Origin: a virus
Direction: 5' to 3' (one strand)
DNA length: 64,000 nucleotides
IMG/VR virus record: IMGVR_UViG_3300006802_000076
Location: 1 to 64,000 of that record
In this document: positions 974-2,080 of the stretch, one piece after another
How the letters are laid out: every line of letters begins with the position of its first letter
Position numbering within the stretch: position 1 is the stretch's first letter
The notes under the pieces: model-generated
What the model was told of the DNA's origin: nothing
Seen by the model: the letters and a program-made list of their open reading frames with translations, nothing else
The model's database searches: none
Made by a program: the position numbers and the translations under genes

Positions 974-1009
974 TCACCCGATCAATGCTCGGAGTATGAT
1001 TCCTAGCAT
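974..1009 (-). CDS. 11-aa micropeptide MLGIILRALIG
   Basis: Strong RBS GAAAGGAGGTGAC; homolog at 2045-2080; flanked by two GC hairpins. Confidence 0.7.
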   Translation of the reverse strand: MLGIILRALIG

Positions 1010-1063
1010 GTCACCTCCTTTCGGTAGTGGCGACCCCGGGGTCACGACCCCGGGGTCACACGG

Positions 1064-1237
1064 TCACCGACCGCCGAACTGCTCGTTCAGTTCGTCGGTG
1101 TAGGCCCACTCCCACTCCCGGCACTTGCGGCACTTCCAGTTCGGGTTCTTGATGTAGGAACCCTTGCCCGTAGCCCGGGCGGACTCCGTTGCGATGATGT
1201 CGAACCGGCCTTCATGGTTCAGAACGATGTGGAACAT
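1064..1237 (-). CDS. Cassette 3 hypothetical protein, 57 aa, with CxxC (MFHIVLNHEG...)
   Basis: GGGAGGGG RBS before ATG at 1237. Confidence 0.8.
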   Translation of the reverse strand: MFHIVLNHEGRFDIIATESARATGKGSYIKNPNWKCRKCREWEWAYTDELNEQFGGR

Positions 1238-1480
1238 GTCCCCTCCCAGGGAGTCGTGCAGGGAGCGAATCCCCCTGACAGACACAACCCTAGCACGTCG
1301 GTGAGAATACGTGCGAAACCTGGCAGTCAACCCTACCTGATCGACGGGCGTGCGATGTATCGCTTCGCCTCATCGCACGCCCGTCTTGGGGCGTGTGAAG
1401 GATATGTGTGAAAGTCGGAGTGGTGATGGAGGTAATGTGCCTGGTGTTGTGCCCCGGGGCCGAAGCCCCGGGGCACCCGG

Positions 1481-1804
1481 TCAGTAGCCCCCGGCGGTGA
1501 TGATGTCGACCCTCTGCAGGGCCTCCATCACGGCCGGATCGGTCGGCGCCGGAATCCCGACCTCCACGGCCAGGTCGATCGCCCTGGCCAGCATCCCGGC
1601 ATACTGACTGGCCACGTCGAACCAGTCAAGGTGGTCACCTGGACGCTCGCCCTGGACGAACGGGTCGAGCGCCGACATTGCGACCAGAGCGGCCTCGTAG
1701 CTGCTCTGGAAGGTCGGCCGAACCTCGTGGTCGGAATGGTCGATCAGGTGACCGATGATGGTCACAATCTGATCTAGGAGATGGAAACAGGTCAAGGTGT
1801 GCAT
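1481..1804 (-). CDS. Cassette 4 hypothetical protein, 107 aa (MHTLTCFHLL...)
   Basis: GGGAGGG RBS before ATG at 1804; GC-rich third positions. Confidence 0.8.
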   Translation of the reverse strand: MHTLTCFHLLDQIVTIIGHLIDHSDHEVRPTFQSSYEAALVAMSALDPFVQGERPGDHLDWFDVASQYAGMLARAIDLAVEVGIPAPTDPAVMEALQRVDIITAGGY

Positions 1805-2044
1805 GATACCCTCCCAGGTCGCACCGTCGGGGACGTTCCCCGACACGACCCATATACACATATGGCTTGAGATACGTGCGAAACCTGACATGTTGGCACA
1901 CCGTAAAGGCTGGTGTGCAAGCTGCACGCTTCGCTGCTTGCCCACCAGCCGGTCGGTGTGTGAGAGATATGTGTGAAAGTGGTAGGGTTGAATGATGTAA
2001 TGTGTTTGGTGTTGGCCCCGGGTCCGAAGACCCGGGGCCGGTCA

Positions 2045-2080
2045 TCACATGAACAGTGCTCTGAGTATGATGCCGATCAT
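2045..2080 (-). CDS. 11-aa micropeptide MIGIILRALFM
   Basis: RBS GAAAGGAGGTGAAC, tandem TGA TGA stops, homolog at 974-1009. Confidence 0.7.
   Translation of the reverse strand: MIGIILRALFM

Follow-up and report, generated by a model that had tools for sequence, protein, structure and literature searches.

Two paralogous mini-ORFs with a 12-nt Shine-Dalgarno sequence in a viral cassette array: a candidate cis-acting mini-cistron

The mini-ORF modules and their translation signals

The stretch of DNA analysed here (the window, 64,000 nucleotides (nt) in length) corresponds to the initial 64 kb of a viral sequence of 94,497 bp and 40% GC, IMG/VR record IMGVR_UViG_3300006802_000076. The window opens with a minus-strand array of six small gene cassettes, and within this array lie two paralogous modules on the same strand, at approximately 941-1059 (module A) and 2014-2131 (module B). 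Each module consists of a hairpin, a 12-nt Shine-Dalgarno (SD) sequence, an open reading frame (ORF) of 11 codons with its TGA, and another hairpin. An initial annotation of this DNA had described the two mini-ORFs as lying between GC hairpins behind cassettes 3 and 5. The positions, the peptides, the flanking hairpins and the placement were all correct, and our analysis also supports its view that they form a discrete, duplicated mini-cassette that standard annotation overlooks. The features of the array and of the two modules are as follows.

1-2950, minus strand: cassette array, 61% GC, six small genes, each with a repeated multi-part upstream module of ~190 nt and a GC hairpin a few nt past its TGA
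1064-1237, minus strand: cassette gene 3, 57 residues, orphan, upstream of mini-ORF A
1030-1059, minus strand: hairpin 1 of module A, 13-bp GC stem, no U-tract, right behind the stop of cassette gene 3, -28.3 kcal/mol on folding
1012-1029, minus strand: small GAAA-tetraloop hairpin with part of the SD, copy A, -6.3 kcal/mol
1011-1022, minus strand: 12-nt SD GAAAGGAGGTGA, copy A, perfect complement to the 16S tail
1009->974 (TGA 976-974), minus strand: mini-ORF A, 11 codons and TGA, MLGIILRALIG, codons ATG CTA GGA ATC ATA CTC CGA GCA TTG ATC GGG TGA
941-967, minus strand: hairpin 2 of module A, 11-bp stem, 6 nt past the stop of mini-ORF A, -29.6 kcal/mol, followed by the promoter-type module of cassette 2
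2177-2335, minus strand: cassette gene 5, 52 residues, orphan, upstream of mini-ORF B
2106-2131, minus strand: hairpin 1 of module B, 46 nt past the stop of cassette gene 5, -27.6 kcal/mol
2084-2102, minus strand: small GAAA-tetraloop hairpin with the SD, copy B, -7.9 kcal/mol
2083-2094, minus strand: 12-nt SD GAAAGGAGGTGA, copy B, perfect complement to the 16S tail
2080->2045 (TGA 2047-2045), minus strand: mini-ORF B, 11 codons and TGA, MIGIILRALFM, codons ATG ATC GGC ATC ATA CTC AGA GCA CTG TTC ATG TGA
2014-2039, minus strand: hairpin 2 of module B, 11-bp stem with a loop that reads C(UUCG)G in minus-strand RNA, located 5 nt past the stop of mini-ORF B, -28.0 kcal/mol

The four GC hairpins that flank the mini-ORFs have stems of 11-13 bp and folding energies of -27.6 to -29.6 kcal/mol. 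At their 3' ends the mini-ORFs are laid out in the same way as all of the cassette genes, on the same strand and with a TGA a few nt ahead of a GC hairpin. The modules have no promoter-type module upstream and start right behind a hairpin of approximately -28 kcal/mol.

Both mini-ORFs are preceded by CCGAAAGGAGGTGA, and a 15-mer, ACCGAAAGGAGGTGA, is identical in copies A and B. The SD GAAAGGAGGTGA is the longest match to the 3' tail of 16S ribosomal RNA in the 94,497-bp genome and occurs at these two sites only, the tail sequence used for the comparison being a general one that may differ from the host's. The SD:anti-SD duplex has an energy of -21.5 kcal/mol in copy A and -21.7 kcal/mol in copy B, versus -11 to -12 kcal/mol for five of the six cassette genes. 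SD sequences are in use across the whole phage genome, where most of 129 crude gene calls have a match of 4-7 nt to the 16S tail. The gap between GGAGG and ATG is 4-5 nt in the mini-ORFs and 3-7 nt in the six neighbouring genes. The ribosome-binding site, which had been called near perfect, is indeed equal to or better than those of the neighbouring genes, and these predicted translation signals cannot be chance. Cassette gene 5 is the sole cassette gene that matches the mini-ORFs in this respect; its SD (2336-2356, minus strand) is also of the AAGGAGGTGA type, with a duplex energy of -21.0 kcal/mol. The leader of this gene lacks the CAGGGAG...CTCCCTG hairpin common to the 5' leaders of cassettes 1, 3 and 6. 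Since gene 5 combines a super-strong SD with the lack of the shared leader hairpin, the array is predicted to have two types of ribosome-binding region.

The codon usage of the mini-ORFs clashes with that of the six neighbouring genes. The cassette genes have a third-position GC content (GC3) of 0.83-0.90 and use ATA for none of 40 Ile codons, AGA for none of 29 Arg codons and TTA for none of 23 Leu codons, whereas the mini-ORFs have a GC3 of ~0.5-0.6, with ATA at codon 5 in both copies and, at codon 7, CGA in copy A and AGA in copy B; copy A also contains CTA. In the bulk of the phage genes GC3 is 0.35, and ATA and AGA are used without restriction. The tRNA genes of the phage number exactly four, Lys-UUU, Arg-UCU, Leu-UAA and Ile-UAU. 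These tRNAs read AAA, AGA, UUA and AUA, and the codons ATA, AGA and TTA are those that the array genes avoid. The array looks fitted to translation without the phage tRNAs.

Within the reading frame the two copies differ at eight bases, three of the differences being silent and five non-silent, the latter in three codons. The three synonymous differences listed in the initial annotation (GGA/GGC, CGA/AGA and TTG/CTG) are correct, although five non-synonymous changes are also present, and the conclusion drawn there, that the synonymous changes indicate selection on the peptide, fails. When eight random substitutions were simulated in 30 nt, 10% of the trials gave no stop and no more than three residue changes, and a new stop arose in 21%. 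Moreover, the ORF is no better kept than the non-coding flanks, with an identity of 28/36 (78%) versus 75% for the linker region and 80-86% for the whole module. Outside the stems, the longest run of identity falls on the SD 15-mer and not on the ORF, and an identical run of at least 15 nt was obtained in 13% of permutations of the module region. A case for peptide-level selection cannot be made from these results, and the tests are all underpowered. The two copies agree in start, stop and length, and 1-nt indels lie just outside the frame on both sides with none inside; this placement of the indels fits coding, but it is a single observation. Because copies A and B are paralogous, they represent one invention and one duplication, not two independent observations. 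Folding of the ORF segment gave no structure common to copies A and B, so that a structured non-coding RNA is not favoured. In the stem of the GAAA-loop hairpin that holds the SD, a U-G pair is changed to C-G between the copies. Plus-strand ORFs running across the modules (MKVVG...) were considered and dropped, as their frame and starts are not kept.

The cassette array and its relatives

No comparable array was found elsewhere in the 94.5-kb genome. The six cassette proteins have no match in Pfam or PHROGs. Protein searches gave no relatives of cassette gene 4, which has no homologue among 5.8 billion proteins, and none close enough of the gene that adjoins the array. The upstream modules are mosaic, with identities of 62-84% that vary by pairing. 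On the minus strand a U-tract follows only the terminal hairpin (36->13), and none is present after the hairpins at 496-519, 941-967, 1030-1059, 1451-1474, 2014-2039, 2106-2131 and 2523-2546. Most of the internal hairpins have a C(UUCG)G loop on the minus-strand RNA, which points to a function in that RNA. Together, the restriction of the U-tract to the terminal hairpin and the UUCG loops suggest that the internal hairpins may be RNA-stability or processing elements and that the array may be read through as a single long unit instead of being divided by six terminators.

A sigma-70 consensus scan of the array gave no minus-strand site. By eye, each upstream module contains a TGnTAnnnT-like extended -10 element (for example, GTGCTAAGGT) downstream of GTTTCGCACGTATTC, which is a candidate promoter. 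In five of the six cassettes a GTTTCGCACG(T/C)AT box lies ~20 nt upstream of an extended -10-like element, TGnTA(A/G)(G/A)(G/T)T. The boxes, in plus-strand coordinates, are at the following positions.

354-364: GTTTCGCACG(T/C)AT box
1309-1319: GTTTCGCACG(T/C)AT box
1874-1884: GTTTCGCACG(T/C)AT box
2381-2391: GTTTCGCACG(T/C)AT box
2836-2846: GTTTCGCACG(T/C)AT box

Cassette 4 has a variant that is 1 nt longer, TATGGGT. The GTTTCGCACG box and the extended -10-like element are a candidate core promoter and regulator site of the array.

The portal protein of this phage has hundreds of relatives among uncultured viral contigs, with up to 86% identity, and is 46-48% identical to those of large Streptomyces phages. 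The closest relative that reaches this end of the genome, G001 (86% portal identity), shares the junction at 2973-3019 (85% identity, E 2.6e-9), which in G001 directly adjoins a high-GC minus-strand gene with its own hairpin. Two further relatives, G010 (at a contig end) and G006 (100% complete by CheckV estimate), have arrays of like architecture with unrelated genes. Hairpin loops of CGAA/UUCG recur in these arrays, as does a large TGGTGGGCAAG...CACACCA-type hairpin; the equivalent hairpins of G006 do carry T-runs. An assembly chimera at the jump from 61% to 40% GC is ruled out by the presence of the same junction and of high-GC cassettes in relatives, and the junction together with the homologous arrays indicates that the array is genuine and typical of the lineage.

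The junction element itself (TTGCCTTCTTCGG.TGTGTATT.AAATTTTTG), found at 2973-3019 of the window and at ~1640-1690 of G001 (L106), forms the border between the array and a G/T-rich tract. Most of the related contigs break off at the array border, L024, L035, L036 and L037 being among those that end near it, and this may represent a hard-to-assemble or hypervariable region. In G010 (L117), a palindromic TTCTAACGTTAGAA-like motif lies beside hairpins and promoter-like regions at 580-800 and 1480-1640. This motif has no counterpart in the array of the window and is likely an operator for a phage regulator.

The initial annotation had proposed that homologues might be found by a pattern search of phage databases for an SD followed by a GIILRAL frame. 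This search was run in several forms and gave no homologue. Scans for an SD followed by an M-x-G-I-I-L-R-A frame had no matches in viral contigs and none in genome contigs, and in metagenomes they had one chance match, which is the start of a longer unrelated ORF. The pattern of an SD hairpin followed by ATG had ten matches in viral contigs; seven of these start ORFs of at least 45 residues, three start unrelated ORFs of 1-9 codons, and none is module-like. At the nucleotide level, the array had no match among 50,697 phage records by megablast or blastn. The array motifs GAATACGTGCGAAAC and TGTAATAAAGTTGTRAG returned chance matches plus two relatives only, and a search with the junction motif returned G001 only. 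A covariance model built from the two copies was run over the window and 84 related loci, 0.99 Mb in total, and detected no additional copy, and Rfam gave sub-threshold chance matches only.

A candidate cis-acting mini-cistron and the alternatives

A possible role for the module could be that of a promoter-less mini-cistron of ~95-120 nt, which would be loaded with ribosomes on read-through RNA and which, if active, would act in cis, its peptide being incidental. We hold this reading tentatively, as one that is quite possible without being probable. Since the internal hairpins have no U-tract, read-through of them is probable, and transcription from the promoters of cassettes 3 and 5 would at least partly pass them, so that the mini-ORFs would be present on RNA. 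The very strong 12-nt SD could then capture ribosomes on this read-through RNA. These ribosomes would move through a short AU-rich frame, or pause on it, meeting AUA as codon 5 and CGA or AGA as codon 7, codons that the neighbouring genes avoid, and they would finish 5-6 nt before hairpin 2. Their occupancy could shield the RNA between the hairpins, or it could modulate hairpin 2 and in this way the fate of the RNA that enters the next cassette. The free 11-residue peptide is the less likely agent. Of the roles put forward in the initial annotation, a ribosome-modulating one is closest to what the anatomy suggests. The mini-ORF feature is real, its translation is plausible, and any function is putative.

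A more specific version of the cis-acting mini-cistron, which we consider highly unlikely, would be a tRNA-gated switch, with the mini-cistron serving as a hungry-codon sensor tied to the phage tRNA-Ile(UAU) and tRNA-Arg(UCU). Until these tRNAs have accumulated, ribosomes would stall at AUA/AGA and hairpin 2 would stay intact. With the phage tRNAs present, ribosomes would reach the TGA, open hairpin 2 and alter the fate of the RNA that leaves cassettes 3 and 5 and enters cassettes 2 and 4. If true, phage tRNA supply would time part of a host-adapted array.

Several points weigh against the cis-acting mini-cistron. Its steps of read-through transcription, translation and effect in cis are all deduced from sequence. 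The SD is partly locked in a weak hairpin (-6 to -8 kcal/mol), and hairpins without a U-tract may nonetheless terminate transcription in this host. The next gene begins only ~240 nt further on and is preceded by an upstream module of its own, leaving no obvious cis target adjoining the mini-ORF. Neither the conservation of the peptide (p ~0.10) nor that of the 15-mer (p ~0.13) is significant, and there are two copies only. Finally, neither a tandem-hairpin unit nor a strong-SD mini-ORF was found in the arrays of the three relatives (G001, G010 and G006), and as the module was found neither there nor in any collection searched, it would be young or dispensable.

An alternative is that the module is a neutral scar, a gene slot cut down by recombination between repeated hairpins or SD regions to a ribosome-binding site, a few codons, a stop and a hairpin, then duplicated with its neighbours and perhaps translated to no effect. 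The mosaic upstream modules are what shuffling of the kind described by Arbiol et al. (PMC2839356) predicts. The stretch from SD to ATG is nearly identical to that of cassette gene 5, the last ten bases at the 3' end of copy A (ATCGGGTGAC) are those of the end of cassette gene 6, and the codon usage is unlike that of genuine cassette genes. The equal identity of ORF and flanks, the lack of significance in every conservation test and the lack of the module in related arrays agree with such an origin too. However, two separate deletions would be required, and the body of the mini-ORF matches no present cassette gene; in a test for relics it aligned nowhere else in the array, where only the SD-ATG segment matched cassette gene 5. 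Start, stop, length and the perfect 12-nt SD have also been kept through ~20% divergence, with indels outside the frame only. We regard a scar as unlikely, though deserving of attention. Rather less likely still is the reading given in the initial annotation, in which an 11-residue hydrophobic micropeptide (M-x-GIILRAL-x-x) would act in trans by binding a target of the host or the phage. In its favour, the copies agree in seven of ten residues, and three of the six codons hit by substitutions are changed silently, two of them through the rare synonymies of Leu and Arg at the first position. Only one of the eight changes affects a second codon position, so that hydrophobicity is kept, and the translation signals are strong. 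Yet the substitution statistics fall short of significance (p ~0.10), residue 2 and the two C-terminal residues differ between the copies, and the viral, metagenome and genome collections hold no homologue. The module also has no promoter of its own, and no gene for processing or export lies nearby. The peptide had been called amphipathic; it is plainly hydrophobic with a single Arg. As the searches gave no homologue, the inhibitor, membrane-active and signal roles have no evidence behind them, and 11 residues are too short to span a membrane.

Two other alternatives draw on the strand and the frame in which the mini-ORFs lie. The AT-rich patch could function on the plus strand, as a promoter with a TATGAT -10 element that fires toward hairpin 1 and gives a short RNA whose first bases, UCACCUCCUUUCGG, mimic the 16S 3' end, and/or an antisense RNA to genes 3 and 5. 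Two of the three promoter-like sites that the consensus scan gave in 3.1 kb fall inside the two mini-ORFs:

971-1000, plus strand: sigma-70-like site inside mini-ORF A, GTGTCA-18-TATGAT
2044-2071, plus strand: sigma-70-like site inside mini-ORF B, ATCACA-16-TATGAT

The sites share an identical 9-nt core, ATCATACTC, the complement of GAGTATGAT, and the shared TATGAT is the complement of the Ile-Ile codons. The kept 15-mer would sit at approximately +3 to +18 of such an RNA and be followed by a hairpin, and the orientation convergent with genes 3 and 5 is like that of antisense control. Against this, the two sites are paralogous and count as one event, their -35 hexamers differ in sequence and in spacing (18 versus 16 nt), and a TANNNT is expected by chance in a 36-nt AT-rich patch. 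The UUCG-type loops belong to the minus strand, and no such site occurs in the other cassettes. We find a plus-strand function distinctly improbable. The last alternative is suggested by the frame, as mini-ORF A is in frame with cassette gene 3 and mini-ORF B with cassette gene 5, with a single TGA between them and 18 and 32 intervening codons, respectively. A leaky TGA in genes 3 and 5 would add 29 and 43 residues, and some of the protein would end in the hydrophobic GIILRAL segment. There is no other stop in between, and the indels between the copies from hairpin 1 to ATG sum to 3 nt, which keeps the frame across copies. The rough chance of such an arrangement is ~0.05, given 1.7% stops per codon in the array. 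This figure is post hoc, however, and GC-rich frames stay open for 36-53 codons or more after the stops of other genes. The region shows none of the known read-through signals, the long genes of this phage use TGA as an ordinary stop, and a 12-nt SD and an ATG within a tail would be an odd coincidence. A read-through tail is very improbable indeed.

Comparison with known systems

The cis-acting mini-cistron can be compared with several known arrangements in which a very short ORF or a strong SD affects RNA or ribosomes, among them precedents in which the binding of ribosomes is itself what matters. The lambda bar and hungry-codon minigenes consist of an SD and an ORF of 2-8 codons with rare AGA/AUA codons near the start, and they cause stalling and tRNA sequestration (PMC2490762; for the hungry-codon minigenes, Hernandez-Sanchez et al. 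1998, PMC1170711, as cited there). The mini-ORFs resemble these in their strong SD, very short ORF and rare A-rich codons near the start, and the minigenes act through the ribosome and the tRNA pool and not through a peptide. Unlike the bar minigenes, the mini-ORFs have 11 codons rather than 2-8, and drop-off falls with length; their rare codons are at positions 5 and 7, and the toxicity of minigenes needs limiting Pth or tRNA. In the microcin C operon, ribosome binding at the tiny mccA ORF sets termination at the hairpin just behind it and stabilises a short RNA (Zukher et al. 2014, PMC4231749). The mini-ORFs share with mccA a tiny ORF with a good SD and a hairpin directly after it. However, mccA has 7 codons, ends in Asn and encodes the substrate of MccB, while the peptides here end in G and M, the six neighbours have no Pfam match, no gene for such an enzyme lies nearby, and the hairpin has no U-tract.

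In Bacillus, a 30S subunit bound at the bare GAAAGGAGG of the STAB-SD of cry3A blocks 5'-to-3' decay by RNase J1 (PMC4113751), and an initiating ribosome at the strong SD of the hbs mRNA likewise blocks 5'-to-3' decay by RNase J1 (PMC5737220). The extended SD of the mini-ORFs has the same GAAAGGAGG core as STAB-SD. It differs from STAB-SD, which is non-initiating and lies near the 5' end of the RNA, in having an ATG at a working distance, 4-5 nt past GGAGG. Leader-peptide attenuators also have a short ORF beside stable hairpins, and the Ile/Leu-rich content of the mini-ORFs is reminiscent of them. In contrast to attenuators, copies A and B fold differently across the ORF segment and have no terminator/antiterminator pairing in common, neither fold competes with hairpin 2, and there is neither a U-tract nor an adjoining regulated gene. 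The hydrophobic peptide, the short ORF near stable hairpins and the possible antisense promoter are like those of type I toxins. The shortest known type I toxins are ~18-19 residues long, whereas the peptides here have 11 residues, below the ~18 residues needed for membrane insertion, and the plus-strand promoter-like sites have a weak, unconserved -35. Judged by these comparisons, the mini-module appears to be a strong-SD mini-cistron inside a regulatory-cassette array that fits none of the bar, attenuator, type I toxin or mccA families.

With evidence from one phage genome and two paralogous copies, the module is a lead, not a discovery. If it is functional, it would represent a compact form of RNA-level control by a phage, by means of a super-strong ribosome-binding site and rare codons in a shuffling early-gene array, with a possible link to the phage tRNAs. 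If it is a scar of shuffling, it would still show how arrays of this kind give rise to tiny translated ORFs, a raw material from which micropeptides could emerge.

The array as a whole is best compared with the promoter-early stem-loop (PeSL) cassettes in the hyperplastic regions of T4-type phages (Arbiol et al. 2010, PMC2839356). As in PeSL cassettes, small orphan genes are framed by a repeated intergenic module (upstream stop, GC stem-loop, promoter-like region, SD and start), and the modules are mosaic. As in PeSL cassettes, too, gene content varies among relatives, with G001, G010 and G006 having unrelated genes at the same place and in the same architecture. In its predicted architecture and its plasticity, the array fits the PeSL concept. 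There are also differences, in that the two systems have no sequence relation and belong to other lineages, the modules here, at ~190 nt, greatly exceed those of PeSL cassettes in length and contain an additional large hairpin, and the promoter and terminator are here predicted from sequence. Recombination between modules, as in PeSL arrays, would be a natural route by which a near-empty slot such as the mini-ORF module could be created or duplicated. A promoter-less unit of an SD and a mini-ORF between two stem-loops is not described for PeSL arrays (PMC2839356), and, if functional, the mini-module would be a new part for PeSL-like systems, which have so far been described only in T4-type phages.

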